A stretch of DNA of 64,000 nt, taken from positions 236,710 to 300,709 of the forward strand of contig LCIO01000001.1 of assembly GCA_001001115.1 (NCBI GenBank). Reading direction: 5' to 3'. Every line of letters starts with the position of its first letter. The first letter of the stretch is position 1. The position numbers were made by a program, and so were the translations under genes. Shown piece by piece: positions 29,704 to 53,387 of this stretch. The DNA is from Candidatus Wolfebacteria bacterium GW2011_GWA1_44_24 (GTDB lineage Bacteria > Patescibacteriota > Minisyncoccia > UBA6257 > UBA9933). The notes beneath the pieces are model-generated. The model searched no databases. It was not told the origin of the DNA and saw only the letters and a program-made list of their open reading frames with translations.

Positions 29704-29834
29704 GTGCAGTATTCTTGAATTAGTCCGAACGCATTTCGTCCTGAGCTTGTCGAAGGGTGAGGAAGTCCCACCGCGAAAATTCGGAAAGGCGGCGGAGCCG
29801 CACCGCTGACAATTTCAAGTTTTTCTTTGGCGGC
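29704..29834 (-). repeat. Modular intergenic repeat, copy 1 (modules A + variable GC hairpins + D)
   Basis: Minus strand GCCGCCAAAGAAAAACTTGAAATTGTCA...GAAATGCGTTCGGACTAATTCAAGAATACTGCAC. Same ends as 51148-51285. Confidence 0.8.
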
Positions 29835-30658
29835 TACTTTATCTTTTTAACTTTAATCCCATGTTTATGCAAGAGTTTAATCCCATCATCATTTCCATAA
29901 GGATGCAAATAATAAACTTCCGAAATATGTTTTTTCAAAATTTCTTGAGAGCAAAGAATACATGGCGGAATAAGAATATAAAGTTTTGTCTTTTTCAAAT
30001 CAACACCTTTAGATTCTGCTTTTTTGATAACAATATGCTCGGCATGTATGTCTTTGCTCTCAATGTTGTCCGACTCGGCAATAATCTTTCCTTGCAAAGT
30101 AATAAGCGCGGAAATTTTTCCAATAGATGCCTTGCTATGGTCAGCCAAAAAATACAAGCGTCGAACAATTGGATTTTTAATTTTGGAATAATCGCGCTGT
30201 GCCAATATCTGTTTGGCAAGAAAACTCGTGCTGGAGCAGCGCACGTCTTTCTCAAGGAAAACTACTTTAATATTTGGAAATTTGTCGTTAATCAAACGAG
30301 CGCGGTATTTTCTATACTTCATCGTCTCTTTCGAGAAAACGTAGTTTCGCGGTTTGATAATTTCCAAATATTTTTCGTAGTGAGACGGCTTATCGAGAAT
30401 CAAAACAAAATCAACAAATTCAAGTGCCGCGACAATTTCAGCACGACGTTTTTCACTAACGATGGGGCGATTAAATCCCTTCCGAACCCTAACTGTTTTG
30501 TCCGCTTGGACGATTACGACGAGGGGTCTGCCGACTTCGCTACATTTCCGCAAATAGCGGAGGTGGCCAGCATGGAACAAATCAAAAACGCCACCGACGA
30601 GCGTTGCTGTATGTGGCTTGAGCGTCTTTTTGAGCTTTGTAAGGGTAATAATTTTCAT
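29834..30658 (-). CDS. Fusion protein: cytidylyltransferase-like nucleotidyltransferase (N) + CMP/dCMP-type zinc deaminase (C)
   Basis: GGVFDLFHAGHLRYL (HxGH nucleotidyltransferase) at the N-terminus. HAEHIV...PPCILCSQEI (HAE / PCxxC) in the C-terminal half. Confidence 0.65.
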   Translation of the reverse strand: MKIITLTKLKKTLKPHTATLVGGVFDLFHAGHLRYLRKCSEVGRPLVVIVQADKTVRVRKGFNRPIVSEKRRAEIVAALEFVDFVLILDKPSHYEKYLEIIKPRNYVFSKETMKYRKYRARLINDKFPNIKVVFLEKDVRCSSTSFLAKQILAQRDYSKIKNPIVRRLYFLADHSKASIGKISALITLQGKIIAESDNIESKDIHAEHIVIKKAESKGVDLKKTKLYILIPPCILCSQEILKKHISEVYYLHPYGNDDGIKLLHKHGIKVKKIK

Positions 30659-30661
30659 TCA

Positions 30662-30784
30662 TTATTTAAAAAATTTTCTTCCCCCAAAATGCAAAATCGC
30701 CAATTCGTTTTTGCCCCCAAAATTGAATACCGATTGGTCGCCGAGCGAAGCGAGGCGAACCTTTCAAACTTGCGAATTCCTTTC
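30662..30784 (-). repeat. Modular intergenic repeat, copy 5 (A' + internal ATTTTGGGGG duplication + C)
   Basis: Minus strand GGAATTCGCAAGTTTGA...AATTTTGGGGGCAAAAAC...ATTTTGGGGGAAGAAAATTTTTTAAATAATGA-ATG. Confidence 0.7.
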
Positions 30785-30869
30785 TGGTGCCGAGGGTGGG
30801 ATTTGAACCCACACGCCTTGCGGCGCCAGCTCCTAAAGCTGGTGCGTCTGCCAATTTCGCCACCTCGGC
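30785..30869 (-). tRNA. tRNA-Leu (anticodon UAG), CCA encoded
   Basis: GCCGAGG/CCTCGGC acceptor, CCAGC-TTTAGGA-GCTGG anticodon arm, long variable arm, GTGGG-TTCAAAT-CCCAC T arm, ACCA end. Confidence 0.88.
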
Positions 30870-30876
30870 AAAAAGA

Positions 30877-30905
30877 TTGACTTTCAATTTAGATTATGTT
30901 ATAAA
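30877..30905 (+). promoter_or_regulatory. Sigma70-type promoter TTGACT-N17-TATAAA for the SPFH operon
   Basis: TTGACT 30877-30882, 17-nt spacer, TATAAA 30900-30905. A strong SD AAGGAGGAAAT-ATG follows at 30999. Confidence 0.6.
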
Positions 30906-30998
30906 TCTAATCAAGTTCTTTCACATAAATAATATGGCGGAATTGAGATAAAAACAACTTAACTGGCCCCGCTAAACAAGGGCAAACAAGGAGGAAAT

Positions 30999-32255
30999 AT
31001 GGATATGGGAAAAAAAGAGTCGTTGCTGAAAGCGCTTAAAGGCTTCTGGCTCGCGCTTAAAGGATTCTGGCTCGCAATGGGCATAATCTGCTTAATCCTG
31101 TTTTCCGCCGATATCTGGTTATCCGGATATTCAAATTCCACGACATTTCTTGGCGCGGAATGGAAATGGAATTGGGGGTTGGCGGCATTTTTAGCCCAAT
31201 TGTTTTATGTCGTTGTAAGTTTCCGGATAGTCGGACCGACAGAACTCGGAGCGGTGCTTTTCTTCGGAAAACCTCTATATAACGTGAAGTCCGGGCTAAA
31301 CCTCGTTCCGTTCCTTGTGTGTCGGTTAGTAAAGAATACAAGGAATATTATCGAGATTGAGCTTCCTACTAGGCCTGAACTAATATTCAGGTCGGAATTA
31401 GAAAAAGAAGAGGTTGTTCCAAAGGATCTTCTGGACAATGGATACAAACCTCCAATCAGGGTTCAATTTGGCGCGCCGGGAATTGAATTGAGCACAAAAG
31501 AACTCGAGTCTCAGCTCAACGATCCCAATATCATGGAAGATGAACGCAAAAGATTGGAGAGAATCAAAAAACTCTATGAGACTTTAAATAGGTTTATAGC
31601 AAACGAAAATATCCAAAACGATCCGCTAAATGTCCGCATGACTGCGGAAACTCCTCTCACGGTTCGATTGAAAATCAAAAGCCTTGTTAGGTTTTTGATA
31701 ACGTTCGATTCACTAGAGAAAGCAAAAGGCCAAATCCAAGATATCGCGGTAGCGATGCTTAACCGCGAATTTTCAAAAATCACTCCCGCGGTGGCTCAAG
31801 CTCATCTCGGAACGTTTAGTGAGCTCATCAAAGAGGAAATCGCCGAAAGAATAGAGAGCAATAAGGGTGATGGCGGCATAGAGATTGTGACTGTGCTTTT
31901 GCGTCCTTTTGGCTACAGTCACAAACTTAACGCATCTCTTCAATCATTTGCCGAAGCGCGAGCGAAAAAGCGGGCAACGGTTATTGATGCCGAAGCTCAG
32001 AAAGAGAAAGATACGCTTGAAGGCGAAGGAAAAGGTGCCGCTGAAAAAGCTATTATTGATGGAAGGACTGAGGGGTTTAAAGGAATGATGGAAAAACTCG
32101 GAGTTTCTGCTCAAGAGGTGCTTGGAGCTGAAATCGCCAGAGAATTCGCTGTCAATCCCGGCCAAAAAACGGTTATCGTCGGTCAAAAAGGCTTTGCTGA
32201 TGTTCTTGGCATTGCCGCTGCGATAGGCGAGACTTTCAAGGAGGGAGGAAAATGA
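30999..32255 (+). CDS. SPFH/Band 7 (stomatin/flotillin-like) domain membrane protein
   Basis: N-terminal TM helices, FRIVGPTELGAVLFFGKP...V core, long Ala/Glu/Lys-rich coiled C-terminus. In-frame 21-bp tandem duplication at 31032-31073 (ALKGFWL x2). Confidence 0.75.
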   Translation: MDMGKKESLLKALKGFWLALKGFWLAMGIICLILFSADIWLSGYSNSTTFLGAEWKWNWGLAAFLAQLFYVVVSFRIVGPTELGAVLFFGKPLYNVKSGLNLVPFLVCRLVKNTRNIIEIELPTRPELIFRSELEKEEVVPKDLLDNGYKPPIRVQFGAPGIELSTKELESQLNDPNIMEDERKRLERIKKLYETLNRFIANENIQNDPLNVRMTAETPLTVRLKIKSLVRFLITFDSLEKAKGQIQDIAVAMLNREFSKITPAVAQAHLGTFSELIKEEIAERIESNKGDGGIEIVTVLLRPFGYSHKLNASLQSFAEARAKKRATVIDAEAQKEKDTLEGEGKGAAEKAIIDGRTEGFKGMMEKLGVSAQEVLGAEIAREFAVNPGQKTVIVGQKGFADVLGIAAAIGETFKEGGK

Positions 32256-32761
32256 GACTGGAGTTAATAATCTTTTTCATCTTTCTTGCAAGCGCGATTG
32301 TACTTTTCGCGTGGAAAAAAATAGAAAAAGAGGTTGAGAAGCCACAAGAGAAAAAACCCGGAGGGCCACAGCCGCCATCACCTAGCCGGAAAAAAATCCA
32401 CTTAGCTAATGGCGTTGGGCTGGCCATAATAATCCTCGCCGCAGTTATCATCTACAAGATGGTCGGAGAGGAATGGTTTCAGCCGCGGACGGCAACGGCA
32501 ATCCACAAAGTCTGGGTTTTAGACCAGACTGTGACGGTGTCATCAAATGAGTGGGTAAATTTACCCATAAAGTTTGACGGCAAGGAGTATAAGTTTGCTC
32601 CGGACACGACATCGGCAGAGATTGAATTCGTTGCCGACGGCCGTTACGGAATCGCCGACAGCCGCACCCAGTTTGACTTCGGAGAAATCCGAAAGTCGCT
32701 GAAGGCTAGAGCAATAAAGGAAAAAGCGGTGGTTTATATGTATACCGCTAATCCTTCCTGA
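32252..32761 (+). CDS. Hypothetical 2-TM protein with C-terminal beta-rich soluble domain (possible NfeD-like partner of the SPFH protein)
   Basis: ATGA start/stop coupling with the SPFH gene. Two hydrophobic helices separated by a Lys/Pro-rich loop. Confidence 0.4.
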   Translation: MRLELIIFFIFLASAIVLFAWKKIEKEVEKPQEKKPGGPQPPSPSRKKIHLANGVGLAIIILAAVIIYKMVGEEWFQPRTATAIHKVWVLDQTVTVSSNEWVNLPIKFDGKEYKFAPDTTSAEIEFVADGRYGIADSRTQFDFGEIRKSLKARAIKEKAVVYMYTANPS

Positions 32762-32778
32762 GAAGGTGATTTATTCAA

Positions 32779-32818
32779 AGCCGCGCAAGGATTTATCCAA
32801 GCGCGGCTGTTTTATTTT
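32779..32818 (+). terminator. Intrinsic terminator of the SPFH operon
   Basis: AGCCGCGC-aaggatttatccaa-GCGCGGCT then GTTTTATTTT. Confidence 0.8.
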
Positions 32819-32843
32819 AAAATTATTTGTTATTATGAATATA

Positions 32844-32871
32844 TTGATATTGGTTGAATTTAATTTATAAT
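32844..32871 (+). promoter_or_regulatory. Promoter TTGATA-N16-TATAAT for the pilin-like gene array
   Basis: TTGATA 32844-32849, TATAAT 32866-32871, ATG 8 nt later (32880). Confidence 0.55.
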
Positions 32872-32879
32872 TTAATTGA

Positions 32880-33299
32880 ATGATTAAATCATTTTCCGGA
32901 AATAAATTTTTATATTTGATTGCGATATTTATCATTTTTTTAAACATTCTGTTTTTTATCGGTATTAATAATATATCAGCGGCGGAGCCTCCTCCCGGCG
33001 GCACAACATACACCACTCCCTCTAAAAGCGGCGGTTTATACGACCCCTTGGGGGGACAAACCATCACCAGTTTAATCCAAAATCTTATCGGGTTTCTCAT
33101 TAAAATCGGCGCGCCTATCGTGGCTTTGATGGTTTTATACGGCGGTTTTTTGATATTGACCGCCGGCGACAAACCCGAGCAGATTACCAAGGGAAAAAAC
33201 ACCATTCTTTACGCGGCTATTGGCTATACAATTATCTTGTGTTCTTGGGGCGTTATTTATATAATTCAACAAGTACTGGGAGCGAAATTAATAAAATGA
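32880..33299 (+). CDS. VirB2/T4SS-pilin-like small membrane protein, paralog 1
   Basis: Signal/TM, variable Pro/Gly/Thr region, TM1-YGGFLILTAGDKPEQITKGK-TM2 hairpin. Same architecture as 34948..35337. Confidence 0.55.
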   Translation: MIKSFSGNKFLYLIAIFIIFLNILFFIGINNISAAEPPPGGTTYTTPSKSGGLYDPLGGQTITSLIQNLIGFLIKIGAPIVALMVLYGGFLILTAGDKPEQITKGKNTILYAAIGYTIILCSWGVIYIIQQVLGAKLIK

Positions 33300-33628
33300 A
33301 AATCTTAAACAAAATTTCATTATTTTCAACAATTTTTTATTTAATGGGCATTTTCCCATTAATTGGTTTTGCTCAAGAATCTCCCGTTAAAAGCATTGAT
33401 GATGTAATGAATGTTTTAAAAAGCATTGTTAATGTGATGTACACGGCTTTCTTTATTGTGGCGATTATGTTTATAATCCTTGCGGCTTTTAATTATTTAA
33501 CCGCCCAAGACGATCCGGAAAAAATCAAAAGCGCCACTCGCCAGATAATGTGGGCGGCGGTGGCGATAGCGGTGGCTTTAATTTCGGTAGGATTTAATAA
33601 AATTGTAGAAAGTTTTATAAAACCATAA
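33296..33628 (+). CDS. VirB2/T4SS-pilin-like small membrane protein, paralog 2
   Basis: ATGA overlap with paralog 1. Signal peptide...AAFNYLTAQDDPEKIKSATRQIMWAAVAIAVALISVG. Confidence 0.55.
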   Translation: MKILNKISLFSTIFYLMGIFPLIGFAQESPVKSIDDVMNVLKSIVNVMYTAFFIVAIMFIILAAFNYLTAQDDPEKIKSATRQIMWAAVAIAVALISVGFNKIVESFIKP

Positions 33629-34090
33629 ATGTTTTTGAATATAAAAAAAATCTTTATTTTATTATTGATATTGGGAATTATTTTCCCGATTTTTTCATTT
33701 GCTGCGTTTCCTGTGGGAGAAGTTGCTGGGCCTGGAGGAAAATTACCAGAAGGCGCGGGAATTAAAGAAGTTTCTGATTTAGTTGGCATTCTTACAAAAG
33801 TTCTTGCGTGGATATATACAATTCTTTTTATTATTGCGATTATATTCATCCTCATTGCCGCTTTCACTTATTTAACCGCTCAAGCGGACCCGGAAAAAAT
33901 CAAAACTGCCACTCGCCAGATAATGTGGGCGGCGGTGGCGATAGCGGTGGCTTTAATTTCGGTGAGTATTAATGTGATAATAAGCAATTTTATAAGCCCA
34001 AGCGATAGTGGAGTTTTAGTAAATCCTAGCGGACAAAGTCCTTATTATTTAGATGTAGATCTTGGAATTTTCAATAAACCGCGAAAATAA
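33629..34090 (+). CDS. VirB2/T4SS-pilin-like small membrane protein, paralog 3 (with C-terminal extension)
   Basis: AAFTYLTAQADPEKIKTATRQIMWAAVAIAVALISVS. Start abuts the stop of paralog 2. Confidence 0.55.
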   Translation: MFLNIKKIFILLLILGIIFPIFSFAAFPVGEVAGPGGKLPEGAGIKEVSDLVGILTKVLAWIYTILFIIAIIFILIAAFTYLTAQADPEKIKTATRQIMWAAVAIAVALISVSINVIISNFISPSDSGVLVNPSGQSPYYLDVDLGIFNKPRK

Positions 34091-34096
34091 ATAAAG

Positions 34097-34465
34097 ATGA
34101 AAAAAGTTTTAATTTTATCAATATTTTTATCAATATTTATTGCAAATAATTCTTTTGCCATAACTGCCGGAACAATTCCTTCAGCCGAGCAATTGGGCGT
34201 TTCTAACGCCCCGAAAATTGAAAAAGTTGACACATTAGTTAATATTATTAGAAATATCGTAAAGTGGACATATATAATTTTCTTTATCGTGGCCGTATTT
34301 TTTATAATTTTAGCGGCTTTCACTTATTTAACCGCTCAAGCGGACCCAGAAAAAATCAAAACTGCCAATAAACAAATTCTTTACGCGGTTATCGCCATTG
34401 TTATCGCTCTTTTAGCCATCGGCTTTGATACGATAATAAAATCATTTCTGCAAAGCGGCGCTTGA
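34097..34465 (+). CDS. VirB2/T4SS-pilin-like small membrane protein, paralog 4
   Basis: AAFTYLTAQADPEKIKTANKQILYAVIAIVIALLAIG. Confidence 0.55.
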   Translation: MKKVLILSIFLSIFIANNSFAITAGTIPSAEQLGVSNAPKIEKVDTLVNIIRNIVKWTYIIFFIVAVFFIILAAFTYLTAQADPEKIKTANKQILYAVIAIVIALLAIGFDTIIKSFLQSGA

Positions 34466-34533
34466 TTGCTTTTTAGCTTGAATGTTTTAATATATTAATA
34501 TGTATTGAAAAGGTCGCAAATGCTTATTTAATT

Positions 34534-34887
34534 ATGAAAACAAAAATTTTTATTATTGCCGCGGGATTATTGGCAGTTTCGGCAATCGCGGGAAATGTCG
34601 CTTTAGCGATTCAAATTCCGGGTATCAGTCAGGTCGGCCCCACATCGGTGACCGGAACAGTGGATGTGATTAAAAATATTGTTAAGTGGGTTTATATTCT
34701 ATTCTTCATCATCGCCGTTCTTTTCATTATTTTGGCGGCTTTCAATTATTTGACTGCCCAGGGCGACGAAGAAAAAGTCAAAACCGCGAAAAATCAGATT
34801 ATTTACGCGGTAGTGGCGATTGTCGTGGCTTTGCTGGCCGTCAGTTTTGACACCATTATCAGCAATTTCCTGCAAAGCGGTCAATAA
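34534..34887 (+). CDS. VirB2/T4SS-pilin-like small membrane protein, paralog 5
   Basis: AAFNYLTAQGDEEKVKTAKNQIIYAVVAIVVALLAVS. Confidence 0.55.
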   Translation: MKTKIFIIAAGLLAVSAIAGNVALAIQIPGISQVGPTSVTGTVDVIKNIVKWVYILFFIIAVLFIILAAFNYLTAQGDEEKVKTAKNQIIYAVVAIVVALLAVSFDTIISNFLQSGQ

Positions 34888-34907
34888 ATTCTCAAAATTT
34901 TCCAAAC

Positions 34908-34945
34908 AAAAAACCCCGTTAGAATTTTCTATCGGGGTTTTTGTT
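34908..34945. terminator. Bidirectional intrinsic terminator between convergent pilin-like genes
   Basis: AAAACCCCG-ttagaattttctat-CGGGGTTTT flanked by A-run and T-run. Confidence 0.8.
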
Positions 34946-34947
34946 TA

Positions 34948-35337
34948 TCAGCAGAATTTTCCCGCCTTTCCCCATTCCCAGGGCTTGAAGCTGCCTCCTC
35001 CTAAAATTTCTATAACTTCCCTAATAATCAGCCAGGCGCCCACGGCGATTAAAACGCCGATAATCGCCGATTGGATGATTTTCCGGCCTTGGGCCGCCCG
35101 TTCGGCCGATTCTCCGGCGGTCAATATTACAAATCCGCCGTAAACAATGAAAATCACCGTAACGGGAATGGCGATGTTGTAAAGAGCGAAATTAATGACA
35201 TTTTCAGCCAAAGTTTTCAGATGGCAAAAATTGCACGCCGGTTCTCCGGCGCCGCCGCACGGCACAAGACCGGCGGCTTGAACAGCCATAACAGAAAACA
35301 CGAAACAGAAAATGGAAAATAGAATTATTTTTTTCAT
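34948..35337 (-). CDS. T4SS-pilin-like protein, paralog 6 (Cys-rich LVPCGG...C..C type)
   Basis: Signal peptide, GLVPCGGAGEPACNFCHL, TM1-YGGFVILTAGESAERAAQGRK-TM2. This is the pattern I associate with CPR 'T4SS pilin' family proteins. Confidence 0.6.
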   Translation of the reverse strand: MKKIILFSIFCFVFSVMAVQAAGLVPCGGAGEPACNFCHLKTLAENVINFALYNIAIPVTVIFIVYGGFVILTAGESAERAAQGRKIIQSAIIGVLIAVGAWLIIREVIEILGGGSFKPWEWGKAGKFC

Positions 35338-39077: not shown

Positions 39078-39097
39078 AAAAAATCGCTTAGAAAGTC

Positions 39098-39376
39098 TTA
39101 TTCTATAGTAATTGTTCTTTCTCCCATTGCGCCGTAAAGCAAATTTCCGAATTTTTCTTTAACCTGAATCGCAATTGCCTTGAGGCCAGTCTTAAAAATA
39201 CGCCAAAAACCGATTTCCGCCTTATCCGAATGATTGCCGACCGCTTCAATTGAATATCTCAAATAAATCAGCCAAAAACCGATGACAATAACCGCTGAAA
39301 CAGCGCTCATTATAAACAGCCAGCGTTTTTTAACGCTCTCGTCGGCGGCCTGAATTTTTTTAAAAAAATTTTTCAA
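39098..39376 (-). CDS. Small hypothetical membrane protein
   Basis: 92 aa with one clear TM helix ([21 protein letters not shown]). Coupled to flanking genes. Confidence 0.4.
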
Positions 39377-39996: not shown

Positions 39997-40072
39997 GAAT
40001 ATTTTATAGTTTATATTGTATCAAAAAAGGTATTGATTTTCAACCGGCTTTGTTATAACATTCCTTACTGTT

Positions 40073-41865: not shown

Positions 41866-41897
41866 GCCGCAAGGTCTTTCTGACTTGCGGCTTTTTT
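41866..41897 (+). terminator. Intrinsic terminator after the orphan ORF
   Basis: GCCGCAAG-gtctttctga-CTTGCGGC then TTTTTT. Confidence 0.8.
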
Positions 41898-41906
41898 ATT
41901 TCAAAA

Positions 41907-41933
41907 TTGACAGTAAATTTGTTATAATATAAT
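41907..41933 (+). promoter_or_regulatory. ftsH promoter TTGACA-N15-TATAAT with -10 exactly 7 nt before the ATG
   Basis: TTGACA 41907-41912, TATAAT 41928-41933, CTCTGGA, ATG 41941. Confidence 0.5.
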
Positions 41934-41940
41934 CTCTGGA

Positions 41941-43779
41941 ATGATGAATAATTTATCAAAAAATATTTTGTGGGCGGTGATGACTCTTCTAATAATCGCT
42001 TTTGTTTTTTCTTTGCTCTATTCGGGACAAAAAACGCCGGCGGTTCTAACTTTGGACCAATTGGCGACAAAAATCAATTCCGGTGAAGTTTCAAAAATTG
42101 TTGTCAGCGGCAATGATTTAAAGATTGAATTAAAAACCGCTGAAAAAGCGGTTTCTAAAAAAGAAGCTGAAACCAGTTTGACCGAAACTCTTAAAAATTA
42201 CGGCGTTGAGCCGCTGGCGCTTCAAAAAGTCGGCTTTGAAATTCAGGAAGAATCGGGATTGCGATTTTGGCTTTCAATTCTAATCCCGTCGCTTCTGCCC
42301 CTGATTATTATCGGCGTTTTCTTCTGGCTGATGTTCCGCCAGGCAAAAACCGGAATGAGCCAGGCCTTCACTTTCGGCAAAGCCAATATCAAGCTTTTTT
42401 CTCAATTTAAAGACCGGATCACCTTCGAAGACGTGGCTGGACTCAAAGAAGCCAAACAAGAATTGATGGAAGTGGTTGATTTTCTGAAAAATCCCAAAAA
42501 ATATCTGGAAATCGGCGCCAAAATTCCGCGAGGCGTTTTATTGTACGGCGCGCCGGGTACCGGGAAAACGCTTTTGGCGCGCGCCGTTGCCGGCGAAGCC
42601 AATGTTCCGTTTTTCCATATCTCCGGTTCGGAATTTGTGGAAATGTTTGTCGGTGTGGGAGCTTCGCGCGTCCGCGATCTTTTTGACACCGCCAAAAAAG
42701 CCGGCCGGTCAATAATCTTTATCGATGAAATTGACGCGGTGGGACGGGAACGCGGCGCCGGACTCGGCGGCGGGCATGACGAAAGGGAACAAACCTTAAA
42801 TCAAATTTTGGTGGAGATGGACGGCTTTGAAAAAAACGACGCCCGGATAGTTATCGCGGCCACCAATCGTCCGGATGTTTTGGACCCGGCGTTGCTTCGG
42901 CCGGGCCGGTTTGACCGCCGGGTAATTCTTGATTTGCCGGATATCAACGACCGCGAAGAAATTTTAAAAATCCATTCTCTCGGTAAAATGCTGGTAAAAG
43001 ATATCAGTTTGCGGAGAGTGGCGGAACGCACGCCGGGATTTTCCGGAGCTGATTTGGCGAATTTAATGAATGAAGCGGCTATTTCAGCGGCTCGTCAAAA
43101 TAAACTCTCCATCAGCCAGCAGGATATTTTTGATTCCGTCGAGAAAGTTCTGCTCGGACCCGAACGCCGCTCCAGAATTCTATCCAAAAAAGAAAAAGAA
43201 ATTACCGCTTATCACGAAGCCGGACACGCTTTGGTGGCGGCGGGCTTAAAAAATGCCGACCCGGTTCATAAAGTATCAATCGTCGCCCGAGGCCGAGCCG
43301 GCGGCTACACCATGAAGTTGCCGATTGAGGAAACTTATTTGCGCACCAAATCCCAGTTTATGGCGGATCTCGCCACTATGCTTGGCGGGTATGTTTCCGA
43401 AAAAATCGTTTTCAGCGATATTTCCACCGGCGCTTCTAATGATTTGCAATCCGCTTCTTCTTTAGCGAGAAAACTGGTGACTAAATTCGGGATGAGCGAA
43501 AAATTGGGACCGATAACTTTCGGCAAAACCGACGAATTGGTTTTTTTAGGCCGGGAAATCGCCATGGAAAAAAATTATTCCGAAAAAGTGGCGGCGGAAA
43601 TAGATAAAGAAATAAAAGAAATCATTGAAAAGGCTCGTCAAGCGGCAAAAAGAATTATTGTTTCCAAGCGGAAATCCCTGGAAAAACTCGCTAAAACTTT
43701 GATGGAGAAAGAAACGCTTGAACGGGAAGAGTTTGAAAGCTTGATAAAAAGTTTTAAATTAAGAACAATAACTGTATAG
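41941..43779 (+). CDS. ftsH: ATP-dependent zinc metalloprotease FtsH
   Basis: [11 protein letters not shown] Walker A, SRH region, zinc site HEAGHA. Confidence 0.97.
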
Positions 43780-43794
43780 ATAAAACCGTTAAAC

Positions 43795-43868
43795 GCGCCT
43801 GTAGCTCAGTTGGTCAGAGCGCCGAGCTTATACCTCGGTGGTCCTTGGTTCGAATCCAAGCAGGCGCA
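43795..43868 (+). tRNA. tRNA-Ile (anticodon UAU)
   Basis: GCGCCTG/CAGGCGC acceptor, GCTC/GAGC D stem, CCGAG-CTTATAC-CTCGG anticodon arm (34-36 = TAT), CTTGG-TTCGAAT-CCAAG T arm. Body resembles bacterial tRNA-Ile. Confidence 0.8.
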
Positions 43869-43872
43869 CCGC

Positions 43873-45123
43873 ATGAAATTCATCGCCGACCTTCACATCC
43901 ACTCCAAATATTCCCGCGCCACTTCTCCAAACATGGTTTTGGAAGAACTGGACCGCTGGGCTGACGACAAAGGCATTTTGGTTATGGGAACCGGAGATTT
44001 CACCCATCCGAAATGGTTTAAGGAGATTAAAGAAAAATTAGAACCGGCCGAACCCGGGCTTTTTAAGTTGAAGCCACAATACAAGAAAAAAACCTTCAAA
44101 GAAACTCTGGCTGAAACGCGATTTTTGTTAAGCGTGGAAATTTCCGGTATTTACAAAAAAAATGGAAAAGTTCGCAGAATCCATAATTTAATTTTTAGCC
44201 CGAATATTAAAATAGCGGAAGAAATAAACAGTCAGTTGGGTAAAATCGGCAATTTAAAATCCGACGGCCGGCCGATTCTGGGACTTGATTCCGAAAGGTT
44301 GGCTGAAATCATTTTTAACATCAACTCCGAAGCGGCAATTATCCCGGCTCACGCCTGGACGCCGTGGTTCAGTATTTTCGGCTCAATGTCCGGTTTTGAT
44401 TCCATTGAAGAATGTTTTGGCAAATACGCTGATAAAATTTTTGCCATTGAAACCGGCTTGAGCAGCGACCCGGCAATGAACTGGCAGCTTTCAAAACTGG
44501 ACAATATTGCTCTGATTTCCAATTCCGATTCTCACAGCTTGGAAAAAATCGGCCGCGAAGCCAACATATTCGACACAAAATTGTCTTATAAGGGAATAAT
44601 AGATGCGATAAAAAGCGGCGCGCCAAAATTTGTCGCCACCATCGAATTTTTCCCGGAAGAAGGCAAATATCATTATGACGGCCACAGAAACTGCGATGTC
44701 ATTTTCCATCCCGACGAAACAGCCAAACACAACGGCATTTGTCCGGTCTGTAAAAAACCGCTGGTCATCGGCGTAATGAATCGCGTCGCCAAACTAGCGG
44801 ACAAAAAAAACCTAAAAATAGAAATTGAAAATAATATCCGTAAATATGATGATTTTACGCCTTACTATAACTTGGTGGCGTTGAGAACCATTATCGCCGA
44901 AGCTTTTGCTGTTGGTCCGACTTCCAAAAAAGTAAAAGCCGAATACGAAAAATTGGTAAAAATATTCGGCAATGAACTTAAAATCCTTATGGAAACTGAT
45001 TATGACGATTTAAAATCCGCCGCCGGCGTCAAAATCGCCGAAGGAGTAAAAAGAGTCAAGGAGGGCAAATTAAAAATCCGTCCCGGCTATGACGGCGAAT
45101 ACGGAGAAGTCAAAATTTTTTAA
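43873..45123 (+). CDS. Endonuclease Q (PHP-domain, TIGR00375-type) family protein
   Basis: MKFIADLHIHSKYSRA..., PAHAWTPW, SNSDSHS, zinc ribbon CPVCKKPL, C-terminal PGYDGEYGEVKIF. Start reset to ATG 43873, since the ORF-track start overlaps the tRNA. Confidence 0.85.
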   Translation: MKFIADLHIHSKYSRATSPNMVLEELDRWADDKGILVMGTGDFTHPKWFKEIKEKLEPAEPGLFKLKPQYKKKTFKETLAETRFLLSVEISGIYKKNGKVRRIHNLIFSPNIKIAEEINSQLGKIGNLKSDGRPILGLDSERLAEIIFNINSEAAIIPAHAWTPWFSIFGSMSGFDSIEECFGKYADKIFAIETGLSSDPAMNWQLSKLDNIALISNSDSHSLEKIGREANIFDTKLSYKGIIDAIKSGAPKFVATIEFFPEEGKYHYDGHRNCDVIFHPDETAKHNGICPVCKKPLVIGVMNRVAKLADKKNLKIEIENNIRKYDDFTPYYNLVALRTIIAEAFAVGPTSKKVKAEYEKLVKIFGNELKILMETDYDDLKSAAGVKIAEGVKRVKEGKLKIRPGYDGEYGEVKIF

Positions 45124-46832: not shown

Positions 46833-46846
46833 TTTTTTATTTTTTG

Positions 46847-46929
46847 TGGGCGCGGAGGGATTTGAACCCTCAAGGACAAAGTCCATACGCTCCTGAAGCG
46901 TACGCGTATGCCAATTCCGCCACGCGCCC
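46847..46929 (-). tRNA. tRNA-Leu (anticodon CAG)
   Basis: GGGCGCG/CGCGCCC acceptor, TACGC-TTCAGGA-GCGTA anticodon arm, long variable arm, GAGGG-TTCAAAT-CCCTC T arm. No encoded CCA. Confidence 0.85.
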
Positions 46930-46941
46930 GCAAAATCTGCT

Positions 46942-48579: not shown

Positions 48580-48625
48580 TAAATCTGTCCGGGCCTGCTT
48601 GGTCGGATTGCCGGATTTACAAAAA

Positions 48626-48838
48626 CTATCTAAGCAGGCTGAATAAAGATAATCCCATTAAGATGACGACCAAAACAATGGTTGCGCCGAAAATTATCCG
48701 TTCCAACCCGCGGCGAGTCTGGTAAAACCCCCCTTCGGACCCGCCAAAAACTCCGGAAAGTCCGGAAGAGCGTTCTTGCAATAAAATTAAAACAATCAAA
48801 ACAACGGAAACAATAATTTGAATGACGGAGATAAGCAT
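48626..48838 (-). CDS. secG: Preprotein translocase subunit SecG
   Basis: 70 aa, two TM helices around LLQERSSGLSGVFGG. Confidence 0.8.
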   Translation of the reverse strand: MLISVIQIIVSVVLIVLILLQERSSGLSGVFGGSEGGFYQTRRGLERIIFGATIVLVVILMGLSLFSLLR

Positions 48839-49206
48839 TATTTATGGAATCTTTTCGCCAAAAAATCGGAAATGAGGTGAACCGCGCTAATAATCAACGT
48901 GGCGTATAATAAAGACAATATGCCGTTAATTTTAACGCTTTCGGAATAAAAGTCAAGAAAATAAAGAATGGCGGCGTTGATGAAAATCAGTCCCGCCCCC
49001 AGAGTAACAATAATAAAAGGGCTGAAGATGAGTTTTAAAACCGGCTTGATGAAGATATTAATGGCGGTAAAAATCACCACCGTTGTCAAAAATTGAACCG
49101 ATAAAAAACCGGCGGTAATTTCAAAACCTTTAATAAAATAAGCAGCCAGCCAAAGAGACAAAAAATTGGAAAGAAAAAGAAAAATTAGCTTAAAAATCAA
49201 TCTCAT
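48838..49206 (-). CDS. Phage-holin-family-4-like (YvlD-type) small membrane protein
   Basis: ~122 aa, four hydrophobic helices. Start trimmed to ATG 49206 to avoid overlapping the divergent gene. Confidence 0.5.
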   Translation of the reverse strand: MRLIFKLIFLFLSNFLSLWLAAYFIKGFEITAGFLSVQFLTTVVIFTAINIFIKPVLKLIFSPFIIVTLGAGLIFINAAILYFLDFYSESVKINGILSLLYATLIISAVHLISDFLAKRFHK

Positions 49207-49299
49207 AATTATCCACAGCTTCTGTTTGGAATATCCGGGATTATCCATTATACTATAAAATAGTAATCCAAAGGTCGATAAATATTTTATCACAAAGAA

Positions 49300-49977
49300 A
49301 TGATAATTCAAAATTTAGCGGATGCCACAATTAGTTCACTTCTGAACACTTGGGGCGGTGTCATCGGTTTTATTCCGTCGTTGATCGGCGCGTTGATTAT
49401 TTTAATCATCGGCTTGATTGTCGCGGCCGGTTTGAAATCGCTGGTAGAAAGAATTCTTAGCGCCGTCAAATTGGACAACTTGCTTCGCCGATTGGAGGTG
49501 GAAAGTTATTTCCAGCGCGCGGGAATGTCGTTGAATTCAGGCAAATTTTTCGGCTCATTAGTTTACTGGTTTTTCGTGATTGTTTTTGTTCTAGCGGCAG
49601 CCGATACGGTTGGCCTAAGAGGGCTTTCTCAGTTTCTGGGAGAAGTCGTCGCTTACATTCCAAACATTATCGTTGCCGCATTGATAATGCTGGTAACGGC
49701 ATTGGTGGCTAGCGCTCTAAGAACCGCGGTCAGCTCATCGGTGATGAGCGCCAAGCTTCACGCTTCCAAATTTTTGGGAACATTGGTTTGGTGGGCGGTG
49801 GTGGTTTTCGGCTTTATCAGCGCTTTGATACAGCTGGGAATCGCGCCCATGCTTCTCAACACCCTGATTACCGGCTTGGTTGCGATGTTGGCCTTAGCCG
49901 GCGGCATTGCTTTCGGTTTAGGAGGCAAAGATTACGCGGCTTATCTTTTAAACAAATTAAAAGAGCGCGTTGAATAA
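49300..49977 (+). CDS. Membrane protein with conserved TM-helix repeats (mechanosensitive-channel-associated type)
   Basis: 225 aa, repeated helix-loop units (IPNIIVAALIMLV..., LGIAPMLLNTLI...). Confidence 0.45.
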   Translation: MIIQNLADATISSLLNTWGGVIGFIPSLIGALIILIIGLIVAAGLKSLVERILSAVKLDNLLRRLEVESYFQRAGMSLNSGKFFGSLVYWFFVIVFVLAAADTVGLRGLSQFLGEVVAYIPNIIVAALIMLVTALVASALRTAVSSSVMSAKLHASKFLGTLVWWAVVVFGFISALIQLGIAPMLLNTLITGLVAMLALAGGIAFGLGGKDYAAYLLNKLKERVE

Positions 49978-49995
49978 AAAATTCATAGATTATTC

Positions 49996-50027
49996 AAAAA
50001 CCCCCGCATTGCGGGGGTTTTTGTTTT
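49996..50027. terminator. Bidirectional intrinsic terminator
   Basis: AAAAA-CCCCCGC-att-GCGGGGG-TTTTTGTTTT. Confidence 0.85.
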
Positions 50028-50072
50028 CTTATTTACTATCCTATTTTACGATCGTTAAATAGGATAGTAAAC

Positions 50073-50408
50073 TTATTTCCCTCTGCCTTCGTATTTTTCA
50101 AAAATCGTCCAAAAACTGAGGTTTTTTTCTCCCTGATTATAAACCTTGTGGAAATCGCCGGCAGGCACAAGCACCATATCCCCGGTTTTGACTTGAATTT
50201 TGCGGCTGGCCGCCTCCATCAATCCTTCGCCGTCAATAAAAACGTAAACCTCATCGGCATCGACATGGGAATGACCGGTGGTGGCTTTTTGCGGCTCAAG
50301 CTCGGTCAAAGAAACCGTTAAATGATTCAGGTCAGATAAATCGTAAACTTTATAAATCTCGTTGTCTCTTATAAGCTTGGCCGATTGTTTATACTCCTTA
50401 ATATCCAT
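50073..50408 (-). CDS. Cupin-domain protein
   Basis: 111 aa. GHSHVDADEVYVFIDGEG...GDMVLVPAGDFH, a two-motif cupin signature. Confidence 0.65.
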   Translation of the reverse strand: MDIKEYKQSAKLIRDNEIYKVYDLSDLNHLTVSLTELEPQKATTGHSHVDADEVYVFIDGEGLMEAASRKIQVKTGDMVLVPAGDFHKVYNQGEKNLSFWTIFEKYEGRGK

Positions 50409-50450
50409 ATATCCATAGAATAATAAATTATGGCGATAATTTCAATTGTA

Positions 50451-50491
50451 AAAAATAAAAAAAGCCCCGAGCAATAAACTGCAAGGGGCTC
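50451..50491 (-). terminator. Intrinsic terminator downstream of 50513..50998
   Basis: Minus strand AGCCCC-ttgcagtttattgctc-GGGGCT then a T-rich run. Confidence 0.6.
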
Positions 50492-50512
50492 GATGATTAA
50501 CAAGCGCTGTCG

Positions 50513-50998
50513 CTAACTCGCTATGCGCTTGTAGAGGAAAAACGGCATAAGCCGGAGAATTAACTCTCGGCTCCACCATTTTACCCAGGAACGGGTGCGC
50601 GGTTGCGTCGAGTCCGAACAGAACCACCCGTCGTTGGGGAACGGAAGCGCACAGACCCGAAGCGCAATCCGCGCTCCAGCTTCTTTAATTGCTTCCCGCA
50701 TATCTCTCTTGCACCGCCAAAGATGCGGTTCAGCGGCAACGACCCAGAGCTCTCCGAATCCTTTCTTTATTGCCCACTGGACAGCTCCTCGCGCAACACG
50801 GAGAGTCGGCGGCGGATTGCCGGGTTCCTCCTTGATATATTCCACCGAAATAGCATCCCCAACACAAACATCGCTTTGAGTGTACACCGTAGCGTCAAGG
50901 TTATACGCTTTTGTCGAGCAAATTGTAGTGATGAGCCGATTAGAACGGATGGTTTTTGGGACTCCAAATCCAAATGCAACAATGCCTGTGTTTTTCAA
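50513..50998 (-). CDS. Hypothetical protein, possibly DUF218/YdcF-like; GC-rich
   Basis: TTG start 4 nt after GGAGGTGA. ...LWVVAAEPHLWRCKRDMREA resembles the DUF218 LVTS..H..RA motif. A hand-counted 100-nt sample is ~59% GC. Confidence 0.4.
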   Translation of the reverse strand: MKNTGIVAFGFGVPKTIRSNRLITTICSTKAYNLDATVYTQSDVCVGDAISVEYIKEEPGNPPPTLRVARGAVQWAIKKGFGELWVVAAEPHLWRCKRDMREAIKEAGARIALRVCALPFPNDGWFCSDSTQPRTRSWVKWWSRELILRLMPFFLYKRIAS

Positions 50999-51147
50999 TC
51001 TTCACCTCCTATATTTGAAGTTGTAAAAAGAGCTGATTTCTAACTAAATTAAATATAACATAGATTATTTTATTTGTAAAGAGTGAGAAAAAATTTACTG
51101 ATTTGCTTTGTCCGCCGATGGCCTAAATCTTCTAAAAAGAAAATTTG

Positions 51148-51285
51148 GTGCAGTATTCTTGAATTAGTCCGAACACATTTCGCCGCCTGCGGCGGCAAAG
51201 ATTCGCCTGCCTGAATTGGTGCGGCTCGCCCCGCCGAGCGGGGCTCGCCGCGTTCTTTGACAATTTCAAGTTTTTCTTTGGCGAC
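51148..51285 (-). repeat. Modular intergenic repeat, copy 2 (A + variable GC hairpins + D)
   Basis: Minus strand GTCGCCAAAGAAAAACTTGAAATTGTCA...GAAATGTGTTCGGACTAATTCAAGAATACTGCAC. Confidence 0.8.
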
Positions 51286-51339
51286 AAATTCATTCTCGGA
51301 AAAGAAAAAAGCGGCTTTGTCATTCATGACAGGGTGCCG

Positions 51340-52200
51340 CTAAACCCTCTGTTTAAGTTCTTTTCGAACATACAGTGTTGGTCGCCAAGGGTGGCACATA
51401 AAAATAGAGCCGAAGCTGACGGCTTTCGCGCCGAGACTTCTGACTTTTTCGAGATCGTCGAAATCCCACACGCTTGGTCCGATTACAGGAATTGTTGTCA
51501 GCTCGGTAAGTTTCTTGACCAAACCCCATGTGAATGGCTGAGCAATTTTTCCAGATACACCACCACCCCCAAGGATTTCAAGAGGGCTTCGGCGATTTGG
51601 GAAAGCTACTGCCCAGGGAATGCTGTTGATTGAAATGGCTTCGACAAGATTCTCAGCCCCTTTCACGATTTGCGAAATATCGTGAGTGACAGACACTTTA
51701 AGAATCAACGGCAGACGAGAATTGGTCTTGACCGCTTCGCAACTTGCAATGACTCTCGCTGTGTCTTGCAAGACGTAAGTTTCAGCGTTCGGACATGAAG
51801 CGTTGATTTCCAACCCAGCTAAGTCAAAGCCGTTCAGCATCCCTGCCATTTCCGCTAATTCTTCCGGTTCTCCGAAAATCGAAACAATCAGAGGAATTTT
51901 TGTTGAATTGAGTGATGGGCCGATTTTCTTACACCACCAATCAATCCCTGGGTTTGACAGCCCGACTGCGTTGACAACCCCGCCACGGACTAATCGCAGG
52001 CAACGAAATGGATTATACCATCGCAGATTTCCTTCCGTTGGCCGAAGTGTCAATGTTTTGGTTACCGAAGTAAAGAGTGTTGGGTCAAGAAGCCCGATCC
52101 AACGCCAAGGTTGTTCCCATAGCCAACCCTTTCCGTCGAAACTCAATGCACCACTTGCGGTCATGTATTCAAAGGTATGACCATTGGAAAACCTTATCAT
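51340..52200 (-). CDS. Dihydroorotate dehydrogenase-like (class 1 DHOD/DHPD family) TIM-barrel flavoprotein
   Basis: NAVGLSNPG, EINASCPN (catalytic Cys loop), GGGGVSG, GAKAVSFGS. AAGGAGGTG SD upstream. Confidence 0.7.
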   Translation of the reverse strand: MIRFSNGHTFEYMTASGALSFDGKGWLWEQPWRWIGLLDPTLFTSVTKTLTLRPTEGNLRWYNPFRCLRLVRGGVVNAVGLSNPGIDWWCKKIGPSLNSTKIPLIVSIFGEPEELAEMAGMLNGFDLAGLEINASCPNAETYVLQDTARVIASCEAVKTNSRLPLILKVSVTHDISQIVKGAENLVEAISINSIPWAVAFPNRRSPLEILGGGGVSGKIAQPFTWGLVKKLTELTTIPVIGPSVWDFDDLEKVRSLGAKAVSFGSIFMCHPWRPTLYVRKELKQRV

Positions 52201-52340
52201 GGTTATTCACCTCCTTTTTGTGTTGTAAGGTACAAAATAAGTTAGATTTTCCCAACCTATTGCCAAACAGATATTACACCTCAAAAAATAAAAAATCAAA
52301 CAAAAAACAGAAATTCCCCAGAATTTCTGTAACAAATAAT

Positions 52341-52481
52341 ATGAAAAAATTTTCTTTTACCCAAAATTCAAAATATGGTTTCCTCCAGAGGTGGGCAGGC
52401 GAGCCGATGTTTTTCTCTGGGTTCTTTTGCGGTTTTGAGCGGAGCCGCACCGCTGACAATTTCAAGTTTTTCTTTGGCGGC
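52341..52481 (-). repeat. Modular intergenic repeat, copy 3 (A + B + C)
   Basis: Minus strand GCCGCCAAAGAAAAACTTGAAATTGTCAGCGGTGCGGCTCCGC-TCAAAACCGCAAAAGAACCCAGAGAAAAACATCGGCTCG...ATTTTGGGTAAAAGAAAATTTTTTCAT. Confidence 0.8.
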
Positions 52482-52534
52482 ATTTAATTATGAATTCTCA
52501 AAACAAGAATAACGCTATGACTACAAATCAACAA

Positions 52535-53263
52535 CTACTTGCTTACATCGTAAGCAACGCGGACATTAGACCCCTCGGGTTTTATTTTTCTGATTGTTAT
52601 TCCGCGAATATCTGCAAGATTGTTTACATGTGTCCCGCCACAAGGAACGCCGAAGTCTCCATACATCACAACGCGAGCAGGTTTTCCCTCTAGCAGATAT
52701 TCAGGGACATGATGGCAAACTTCGTGCATCTTTTCCTTCGGCATAAAAATAAGTTTGGTTGGGCGATTTTCACCAATAAATTTATTGCACAAATTTTCAA
52801 TGTCGGTTTTCAATTTTTCCTTATCCAGTTCGCCAAGACTTCCGGCGTATTCAACATAAGGACCTTCTGGAAAATGATAGCCCTTGCCGGGCACCCAATT
52901 AAGTTTCAAGGCAGTAACCGCCATGTCAACAACATGACCGGCAGAGTTAATACGACTGTTGAGTGCGCGGCGTGTTTCATCAACTACACACTTGACGGTT
53001 TCTCCGGTTTGAAAAGTTACGGAATCAAATTTTCCGATGTGCTTCACTACTCCCTCAACAAAGCGCACTTCTTCAACGGAAAATTTTCCAGAAGGTCTTT
53101 CGATTACGCCCTTGTCGTATGGCTGACCGCCACCTTGCGGATAGAAAACAGTTTGATCCAAAAGAACAATATCCTTACCGTTTTCTTGCGTTACCTCCAA
53201 AACCTTTGCTTCAGTAGCAAGGAGATTGAAATCTTCCAAATAAAGCAGTTTCGTTGGTTGCAT
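52535..53263 (-). CDS. alaX: AlaX-type alanyl-tRNA editing protein (tRNA_SAD domain)
   Basis: QTVFYPQGGGQPYDKG, SAGHVVD, PCGGTHV zinc/editing motifs. 242 aa. Confidence 0.75.
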   Translation of the reverse strand: MQPTKLLYLEDFNLLATEAKVLEVTQENGKDIVLLDQTVFYPQGGGQPYDKGVIERPSGKFSVEEVRFVEGVVKHIGKFDSVTFQTGETVKCVVDETRRALNSRINSAGHVVDMAVTALKLNWVPGKGYHFPEGPYVEYAGSLGELDKEKLKTDIENLCNKFIGENRPTKLIFMPKEKMHEVCHHVPEYLLEGKPARVVMYGDFGVPCGGTHVNNLADIRGITIRKIKPEGSNVRVAYDVSK

Positions 53264-53267
53264 AGGA

Positions 53268-53387
53268 TTAAAAAATTTTCTTCCCCCAAAATTAAAATAT
53301 GGTTCGAGCCGATGTTTTTCTCCGGGTTCTTTTGCGGTTTTGAGCGGCGCGGCTTCGCCGCCTTTCCGATCAAACTTGCAATTTCCT
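53268..53387 (-). repeat. Modular intergenic repeat, copy 4 (A' + B + C) filling the tRNA-Arg to alaX spacer
   Basis: Minus strand GGAAATTGCAAGTTTGA...TCAAAACCGCAAAAGAACCCGGAGAAAAACATCGGCTCG...ATTTTGGGGGAAGAAAATTTTTTAATCCT-ATG. Confidence 0.8.

Follow-up and report, generated by a model that had tools for sequence, protein, structure and literature searches.

The staphylococcal cassette chromosome elements (SCC; SCCmec and its relatives) are moved by the serine recombinases CcrAB or CcrC, are found at the 3' end of a conserved RNA-related gene, and form tandem arrays as well as recombinase-less "pseudo" elements that keep the attachment (att) ends. SSV integrases are tyrosine recombinases that are split in two on integration. 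Bacteria of the candidate phyla radiation (CPR/Patescibacteria) have minimal genomes with a patchy metabolic gene content, and no description of their routes of gene gain was found. The tycheposons of Prochlorococcus use tyrosine recombinases in 910 of 937 cases, each specific to one of 7 tRNAs, and carry replication modules and cargo of up to 10 kb or more (10.1101/2020.12.28.424599). In the present study, we analysed a 64-kb stretch of DNA (hereafter the window) from Candidatus Wolfebacteria bacterium GW2011_GWA1_44_24 (contig LCIO01000001.1, positions 236,710 to 300,709), in which a family of intergenic repeat modules, designated A, A', B, C and D, had been noticed in an earlier note. We consider it highly probable that these modules belong to a family of very small integrative elements specific to CPR/Patescibacteria, of which they form the non-coding ends and the internal joints. 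The evidence consists of module homology, element architecture, tRNA anchoring, the reconstitution of attP from attL and attR, an empty orthologous site, a cassette shared by unrelated genomes and the turnover of cargo. Loci and contigs fetched for comparison with the window are given as L-numbers (L047, L108 and so on).

The five large copies were present on the minus strand where the earlier note had placed them, at 29704–29834 (c1), 51148–51285 (c2), 52341–52481 (c3), 53268–53387 (c4) and 30662–30784 (c5). Module A occurred as three identical 25-mers (29807–29831, 51258–51282 and 52454–52478), module B twice (52400–52438 and 53305–53343), module D twice (29704–29737 and 51148–51181), and module C as two exact copies (30666–30690 and 53268–53292) with a degenerate third at 52343–52372. 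For each of these four modules, 0 matches were expected from 100 dinucleotide shuffles; they stand far beyond chance, whereas A' by itself was not significant (2 matches against 0.93 expected). Both copies of A' lie 3 nt past an encoded tRNA CCA end, and it is because of this context that A' was accepted as real. The proposed C-like fragment at 18575–18590 had only GGGGGAAGAAATTTTT in common with the family and was missed by a sensitive search with whole-element references; it was dropped as a chance match. The same search located only two arrays in the 64 kb, both at tRNAs. The modules had been described as lying upstream of unrelated genes, which is correct only positionally; the anchor points of the copies are the 3' ends of tRNAs and the 3' sides of the enclosed genes.

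The complementarity between the ends of A and D was borne out. Of 59 distinct units drawn from many genomes, 53 had 9 or more of the 12 possible pairs, compared with 4.8 ± 1.6 for shuffled 12-mers. The GC-rich hairpins of the variable part, designated V, were likewise real: V has a GC content of 65%, and 38 of 60 units had a perfect 6–8-bp stem beside D, which appeared in about 4% of shuffled sequences. The open reading frames (ORFs) that run through the repeats had been regarded as artefacts, and we agree. An 85-aa ORF at 51070–51327 spans c2 without a Pfam match, and a 69-aa gene call (L001 10781–10990) covers c3 between alaX and the dihydroorotate-dehydrogenase (DHODH)-like gene. Both carry the same recombinase-derived stretch, AAKEKLEIV or VAKEKLEIV, and the public "hypothetical protein" calls of 85 and 69 aa are probably artefacts containing recombinase codons.

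The origin of the modules was revealed by a metagenome scan with the 22-nt core of A, which returned more than 120 contigs from many environments. In L047 and L022 this 22-mer lies inside an ORF of ~490 aa encoding EFAAKEKLEIVA. The protein is a large serine recombinase (LSR) with Resolvase, Recombinase and Zn_ribbon_recom domains, and its nearest solved relatives in the PDB are the SPbeta and A118 integrases. On L047, the window copies correspond to 2937–2963 (A), 2982–3001 plus 4191–4208 (B), 2743–2831 (c5) and 2677–2708 (D). Copy c5 (A' to C) is a ~100-nt inverted copy of the last 33 recombinase codons (T) together with module C, which precedes the recombinase ATG; D is a conserved arm with a tRNA-like ...GCACCA end. 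The internal repeats of L047 are all 100% identical and tile exactly. Module B is a fusion of two gene fragments, B1 and K, both of which rank among the most conserved DNA segments of the recombinase gene. Some recombinase genes of the family are pseudogenes, such as L100 3578–5035 with an in-frame stop. In L094 (5618–6997) and L051 (2701–4101), the recombinase match starts at about residue 22–29, so that the N-terminal region with the catalytic serine is missing; in L094 a cargo gene occupies the position where this region would be.

Annotation of all the fetched loci yielded a canonical element of ~2.6 kb, which reads tRNA, antisense recombinase, inverted T.CCA.D joint, B1-K-C, one cargo gene, A-V-D and host DNA. 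The last codons of the recombinase (...FPVWW) are the antisense of the tRNA ...CCACCA end. Across an intact joint the recombinase reads ...FPVWW-SILK(V/I)VRTHF..., and in the integrated state ...FPVWW followed by tRNA antisense. V varies between elements and forms a perfect inverted repeat on either side of the cargo unit. The variant forms L094 and L020 are explained by inversion between the V-D repeats and deletion between the direct A repeats. The mosaic appearance of the modules is the product of recombination among the element's own internal repeats. The T inverted repeats were also considered as an invertible switch; this was rejected because the orientation of the recombinase segment is fixed (70 against 2 doubtful cases).

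Array 1 follows the order tRNA-Leu(TAG), rc(T)-C-(cytidylyltransferase/deaminase)-A-V-D, dedA, with rc denoting the reverse complement and all features on the minus strand. The tRNA gene (30785–30869; ARAGORN and Rfam) encodes a ...GGCACCA end, which is the chromosomal (B) arm of attL, and the array begins 0 nt past its CCA, as in 27 other loci. The P' arm at 30690–30784, comprising A' and most of c5, is rc(T), the antisense copy of the last ~33 recombinase codons. It matched recombinase residues 458–490 with 64% identity (tblastn, E=1.7e-7) and L047 2743–2831 with 83% nucleotide identity. Module C (30666–30690), which precedes the recombinase ATG in full elements, is here 7 nt ahead of the ATG of cargo 1, a 274-aa cytidylyltransferase-like/cytidine-deaminase fusion (29834–30658; Pfam). 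Module A (29808–29834) begins on the cargo stop codon and is a copy of recombinase codons ~30–42 (AAKEKLEIV), 100% identical to L047 2937–2963 within the recombinase ORF. It is followed by V with its GC-rich hairpins (29738–29807) and by D, the P arm (29704–29737), which ends ...CTGCAC and forms attR with host DNA at 29704/29703; the dedA ATG lies 8 nt further. The same layout (tRNA, then T-C-cargo-A-V-D) was shared by the recombinase-less loci L014, L017 and L066.

Array 2, also on the minus strand, is a two-cassette array in the order tRNA-Arg(CCG), rc(T) stub, rc(V) stub, B1K-C-(alaX)-A-stub-B1K-C-(DHODH-like)-A-V-D, host; L143 holds a comparable array with the recombinase intact. The tRNA (53391–53465; ARAGORN and Rfam) provides the B arm of attL, and A' (53370–53390) is what remains of the P' arm, namely its initial ~20 nt (TGT AGGAAATTGCAAGTTTGA), the other part being deleted together with the recombinase. 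An inverted V stub (TCGGAAAGGCG) with a GC quasi-palindrome (53344–53369) is the reverse complement of the start of V in c1 (inverted repeat I3). The adjoining B (53300–53343) is B1 (codons ~47–53, KTAKEPG) fused to K (codons ~450–455, KNIGSN), matching L047 2982–3001 plus 4191–4208, and the same B1-K deletion joint was found in the mini-recombinases of L105 and L108. Copy c4 thus equals the canonical left part minus the segment from T position ~21 through the last 11 nt of rc(V). Module C (53268–53297) lies 4 nt ahead of the alaX ATG, and cargo 2, an AlaX-like tRNA-editing protein of 242 aa (52535–53263; Pfam tRNA-synt_2c and tRNA_SAD), occupies the C...A slot.

The joint of the two tandem cargo units is c3, a collapsed V-D...D-V palindrome. 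Its first part (52400–52482) consists of A (52455–52482), the collapsed palindrome stub (52439–52454) and B1+K (52400–52438), and is followed by the degenerate module C of the second unit (52343–52372; 97% identity to L047 2544–2571). This type of joint (A-stub-B1-K-C) recurs in L028, L030, L082, L103 and L143. Past c3 there is a terminator-like hairpin of 10 pairs with a T run (52307–52330), and beyond it comes an upstream region proper to the DHODH-like gene, in which a Shine-Dalgarno-like AAAGGAGGTG directly precedes the ATG. Cargo 3 is this dihydroorotate-dehydrogenase-like protein of 286 aa (51340–52200; Pfam DHO_dh). Copy c2 (51148–51291) forms attR of the array, with A at 51259–51291, V at 51182–51258 containing strong GC hairpins (fold z=-3.2), and D at 51148–51181 ending ...CTGCACCA.

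Anchoring at tRNA genes was observed across the family. Among the 92 recombinase genes that are not at a contig end, 70 finish on an antisense tRNA 3' end, with 31 isoacceptors represented, and most of the other 22 abut either tRNA-like ends missed by ARAGORN or a D mimic. The attL site always reads tRNA...CCA-NNN-AGGAAA, and 44 of 52 internal joints read D...(G/C)CA-CCA-NNN-AGGAA. At the outer D ends, a C follows ...GCA in 82% of cases and the full CCA in only 34%, after which unrelated host DNA begins. These base counts at joints and outer D ends indicate that the shared identity stops at about the discriminator and the first C of CCA. The core shared by tRNA ends, D ends and joints is very short, about CA.C(CA), with no long direct repeats. 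The three window tRNAs without elements (29044–29116, 43795–43870 and 46846–46929) have CAC at positions 72–74 and encode no full CCA; the two element-bearing tRNAs read CACCA. That the element always supplies the CCA was rejected as a general rule, given that unoccupied tRNA-Ile genes (L223, L227) encode it and an unoccupied tRNA-Arg gene (L231) does not. D carries GTTCGGAC 29 nt from its CCA end, and the tRNA T-loop GTTCRAAT lies 24 nt from the CCA end; this 5-nt offset presumably resembles the longer attP half-sites of serine integrases, as in the A118 model.

The two outer arms of array 1 were then joined in silico, the D end (29704) to the tRNA-side arm (30784). The resulting sequence is not in the window. 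It is contiguous at 92–94% identity over 122 nt just upstream of the recombinases of L061, L104, L183 and L170; dozens of further loci have it in a less similar form. Since the joined ends exist intact elsewhere, the relation expected of an integrated element, attL + attR = attP, holds for array 1. The predicted circle junctions are ...AAGAATACTGCAC/CAGAAAGGAATTCGCAAGTTTGAAAGG... for array 1 and ...AAGAATACTGCAC/CATGTAGGAAATTGCAAG... for array 2.

Comparison with other genomes revealed an unoccupied site and the occurrence of a whole cassette at another tRNA. L231, a relative, is collinear with window positions 56065–53769 up to tRNA-Arg(CCG), through an LDcluster4 gene, a small ORF, an amino-acid transporter and a gene of 171/183 aa. 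Past this tRNA it continues as TAAAAAA..., with no modules, no alaX and no DHODH-like gene, and so represents an empty site. The window and L108 have the cassette C-(cytidylyltransferase/deaminase)-A-V-D in common (92% identity over 986 nt) but share nothing in the flanks; in L108 it lies at tRNA-Arg(CCG), beside a mini-recombinase, in an unrelated host with a GC content of 0.56–0.63 against 0.41 for the cassette. The DHODH-like gene is 90% identical in L018, where it is again followed by module A.

The cargo turns over extensively. The 95 C...A slots (median 843 nt, interquartile range 751–943) hold 90 unrelated protein clusters, nearly always one gene each, and the cargo is unrelated between elements whose recombinases have 84–90% DNA identity, also when the two lie in a single genome (L164, L166). 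The Pfam matches comprised methyltransferases, SDR, Na/Ca exchanger, subtilase, NAD(P)HX dehydratase, carbamoyltransferase, HisG, ASD, asparaginase, PRAI, SET-domain proteins and Mu Gam, and the majority of cargo proteins had no Pfam match. A defence-island role for the cargo was considered and set aside, as few PADLOC matches were obtained.

From these comparisons, we propose a mechanism in which catalysis by the LSR, the exact crossover, the route of cargo entry and any present mobility of the window copies are predictions from sequence. The substrates of the LSR would be attP (D...GCA.CCA.NNN.AGGAAA...) and the 3' terminus of practically any tRNA gene, and the strands would be exchanged near the discriminator or the first C of CCA. 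Such an insertion would put the cargo downstream of the tRNA and co-directional with it. A, B1, K and T are duplicates of parts of the recombinase gene and lie around the cargo slot, and recombination among these internal repeats would give rise to recombinase-less cassettes and tandem arrays. Both window arrays, with two att arms retained in each, might be excised by a recombinase supplied in trans.

A conserved palindrome was identified inside the recombinase gene. In all intact genes, a stem of 7 bp with a loop of 3 nt lies between A and B1, and the sequence of the stem differs among elements. In the alignment, 98.8% of cells were paired and 55 cells were changed on both sides, including synonymous third positions. 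The observed value was reached by 0 of 500 shuffles, and slid controls gave at most 48% pairing. The stem sits exactly where the cargo units are opened, and it could be a DNA site or a feature of the mRNA.

This palindrome bears on whether the mosaic arose mainly through a second, attC-like site-specific reaction at A-palindrome-B1 and not through homologous recombination among internal repeats. We regard such a reaction as rather unlikely, even though the covarying stem lies exactly at the A/B1 breakpoint, array joints of the form A-x-B1-K-C occur in at least six loci, B1 and K are strongly conserved, and A holds an inverted copy of the D-arm core motif. Inversion plus deletion between identical internal repeats suffices to derive all the variants observed, no cargo-bearing free A-x-B1 circle junction was seen, and the palindrome may instead be an mRNA or regulatory feature. 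A sharp cargo boundary at A was looked for and a ragged one was found, with subfamily-specific extensions; because of this raggedness, homologous exchange through the conserved flanks is favoured. Only tentatively can the family be viewed as a serine-recombinase, integron-like gene-capture platform specific to CPR/Patescibacteria, in which one LSR clade would land on universal tRNA 3' ends, move single-gene cassettes between hosts of phylum-level divergence, exchange cargo via A-palindrome-B1, and reshuffle genomes by recombining different tRNA ends. The last component is suggested by dedA and the endonuclease-Q gene (endoQ), which sit behind different tRNAs in related Wolfebacteria. Several observations weigh against the integrative-element interpretation itself, among them the ragged A-side boundary. 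The interpretation gives no reason for the framing of the cargo slot by recombinase-gene fragments, and neither an excised circle nor recombination activity was observed. The recombinase gene is absent from the window, where tblastn detected only fragments, and none was shown elsewhere in this genome; the window copies are on this account non-autonomous derivatives. No excision variant or empty site appeared in 20-odd strain-level assemblies, as examined by look-ups with three flanking or cargo proteins, and the copies may be fixed and immobile, given that all of these assemblies share the occupied arrangement. The empty-site comparator L231 belongs to a different species with a diverged tRNA sequence, the conservation of module A is inflated by the collection of loci through an exact match to its 22-mer, and some genomes carry the labels Gammaproteobacteria, Latescibacterota or Woesearchaeota, probably through mis-binning.

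Several of these points would also fit inert scars of decayed integrative elements, with alaX, the DHODH-like gene and the transferase-deaminase gene as resident genes trapped between independent insertions and no cassette system at all. The window without a recombinase, the fixed arrangement in all strain-level assemblies, the housekeeping or metabolic appearance of the enclosed genes, and the upstream region, Shine-Dalgarno-like sequence and preceding terminator-like hairpin of the DHODH-like gene agree with this. It is nevertheless improbable for the following reasons. An unrelated genome has the transferase-deaminase gene together with its flanks (92%, 986 nt) at another tRNA, and in L018 module A again comes after the DHODH-like gene. 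The 95 slots vary little in size and contain 90 different single genes, and neither alaX nor the DHODH-like gene is present at the orthologous tRNA-Arg site of L231. The earlier note had leaned towards structured leader RNAs or elements like the repetitive extragenic palindromes and bacterial interspersed mosaic elements (REP/BIME); its mosaic of recombining mobile-DNA modules and its inverted-repeat-like A...D ends stand, but neither identity does. Transcribed cis-regulatory leaders or small RNAs controlling the downstream genes would account for the position of c4 and c5 directly upstream of start codons that have no Shine-Dalgarno sequence, for the A-D complementarity and the GC hairpins of V, and possibly for the covarying 7-bp hairpin, if this acts in the mRNA. 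However, Rfam gave no match on any copy even at E<=1, only the tRNAs being found. In minimum free energy comparisons with shuffles, four of the five copies had sense-strand z values of -0.5 to +1.0, none was significant on the antisense strand and no fold was shared; the sole exception, c2, owes its value to its own GC hairpins. The A-D pairing also lacks compensatory support because A never varies, the modules are fragments of a coding gene plus att arms, and they occur 3' of some genes and 5' of others, all of which makes a leader RNA very improbable. An origin as selfish palindromes spread by a REP-associated tyrosine transposase (RAYT) is hardly credible, although the modular mosaic, the GC-rich palindromes in an AT-rich genome and the segment inverted between c1 and c4 (I3) recall such repeats. 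Every module comes from one LSR element, in gene-derived units of 25–100 nt and not as short dispersed palindromes; the copies are anchored at tRNA 3' ends and frame single genes, only two arrays at tRNAs exist in 64 kb, and the V inverted repeat of the canonical element accounts for the c1/c4 inversion. No transposase family was matched by Pfam among eight repeat-adjacent ORFs. Insertion sequences (IS) and miniature inverted-repeat transposable elements were rejected as well, as the P' arm and D do not form a pair of terminal inverted repeats and nothing beyond the CA.C core is duplicated. The A pairs that face outward at a distance of ~1.2 kb were dropped as IS terminal repeats, with A lying within the recombinase ORF and after the cargo gene.

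The surroundings of array 1 carry traces of a rearrangement. Two relatives, L223 and L227, have the order FtsH, tRNA-Ile, dedA, tRNA-Val, in which tRNA-Ile(TAT) is followed after 4 nt by the orthologue of dedA. In the window, dedA (29121–29696) and tRNA-Val follow the D end of array 1, and FtsH (41941–43779) with tRNA-Ile(TAT) (43795–43870) is found 14 kb away on the other strand, abutting endoQ (43873–45123) after 2 nt. This tRNA-Ile(TAT)/endoQ junction (43795–45123, plus strand), compared with the L223/L227 order, is the probable partner breakpoint of the rearrangement that moved dedA to the D end. The endoQ gene was behind a different tRNA in each genome examined; in L231 it comes after tRNA-Arg(CCG) and one further gene, and in L229 after a cluster of tRNAs. 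The order tRNA-Leu(TAG), endoQ, predicted by a simple 14-kb inversion, was not found in the relatives, and the history is more complex. Our claim is limited to the coincidence of the breakpoints with tRNA 3' ends and one end of a cassette. In the relative L225, a hemerythrin gene (3493–4001) lies exactly between the tRNA-Ile(TAT) 3' end and dedA without any modules, and a LAGLIDADG endonuclease gene is directly downstream of dedA. Beside array 2, an 85-aa ORF with a GIY-YIG nuclease domain (53468–53725) lies between the 171-aa gene and tRNA-Arg(CCG); it has no counterpart in the collinear L231 and looks like an independent small insertion.

Other repeats in the window were recorded separately. 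A 62-nt repeat, 95% identical between 18624–18685 and 24393–24454, contains the GC hairpin GTCCGCCA(G/A)CTGGCGGAC; its second copy is flanked by a 30-nt inverted repeat (24374–24403 and 24443–24472). It is unrelated to modules A to D and had no Rfam match at the gathering threshold. A tandem array at 33239–34887 comprises four diverged paralogues of a 222-nt repeat family with 62–73% identity. For this part of the same contig, the public gene calls (L205–L207) include several adjacent small genes with T4SS_pilin (PF18895) matches. A 9-nt tandem repeat (GTTGTTGGA-like) was located at 3653–3703 within the 1135-aa ORF at 721–4128. Given that dnaA and dnaN are adjacent on the plus strand at 61160–63784, the window probably includes the replication origin region.

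At least 413 loci of the family were found in species-representative genomes, nearly all labelled Patescibacteria/CPR. Among the matches listed, they span many Parcubacteria lineages, Microgenomates, Magasanikbacteria and Peribacteria, and several genomes have two copies. Carriage by phages was considered and rejected, since only five viral contigs had a relative, three of them close. No prior description of the element family was found in the full-text literature, subscription-only papers not being covered. The family offers a concrete vehicle of gene flow for CPR bacteria, as a ~2.6-kb element in hundreds of species-level genomes that brings in one gene at a time behind tRNAs. Its recombinase-less cassettes bring ordinary enzymes, here an AlaX editing protein, a DHODH-like enzyme and a nucleotide-modifying fusion. 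It further accounts for recurrent contig breaks and spurious short ORFs beside tRNAs in CPR metagenome-assembled genomes, and many of the strain-level assemblies do break at the arrays. An LSR clade that naturally targets the near-universal ...CA-CCA tRNA ends would be an unusual multi-target integrase and may interest tool developers.

With regard to the known systems, the CPR family shares with the large serine integrases (phiC31, Bxb1, A118, SPbeta) the Resolvase, Recombinase and zinc-ribbon domains and an attP x attB logic giving attL and attR with few shared crossover bases. It differs in its target, generic tRNA 3' ends of 31 isoacceptors and not one protein-coding gene, and in its size, as an element measures ~2.6 kb, has one cargo gene and lacks genes for phage functions, conjugation or replication. 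Its recombinase extends with the 3' end into the att site, the cargo is framed by recombinase fragments and by a second attP-like joint in inverted orientation, and no directionality factor was identified. Insertion at a 3' end, tandem arrays and recombinase-less forms are features common to SCC and the CPR family; however, SCC has one target (rlmH), measures tens of kb and belongs to Firmicutes, whereas the CPR family uses many tRNAs and carries ~0.8 kb of single-gene cargo. As in integron cassettes, the cargo consists mostly of single, diverse and often unannotatable genes of 0.5–1 kb, each with a conserved, recombination-associated 3' flank, and it turns over fast relative to the recombinase; the imperfect inverted-repeat ends and variable centre of A...D recall attC. 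Unlike integrons, the family has no IntI tyrosine recombinase, attI or attC consensus, its platform is the tRNA 3' end, its flanks copy the recombinase gene, and most arrays hold one or two cassettes. In SSV1-type archaeal integrases, the att site also overlaps the recombinase ORF and integration alters the 3' end of the gene, but the CPR recombinase is of the serine type and only its last few codons change. Tycheposons are likewise cargo elements of streamlined genomes that integrate at tRNA genes, pile up beside them and leave degenerate remnants (10.1101/2020.12.28.424599); in contrast to them, the CPR family has an LSR, no replication genes and many tRNA targets. With REP/BIME it has in common mosaic intergenic repeats with GC-rich palindromes, but there is no short dispersed REP unit and no RAYT among the eight repeat-adjacent ORFs, and its modules are recombinase-derived and tRNA-anchored. 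The CPR family differs from all the systems compared in its generic tRNA-end target, its minimal size, the att site over the recombinase 3' end, the internal inverted attP-like joint and the recombinase-fragment flanks of its cargo.

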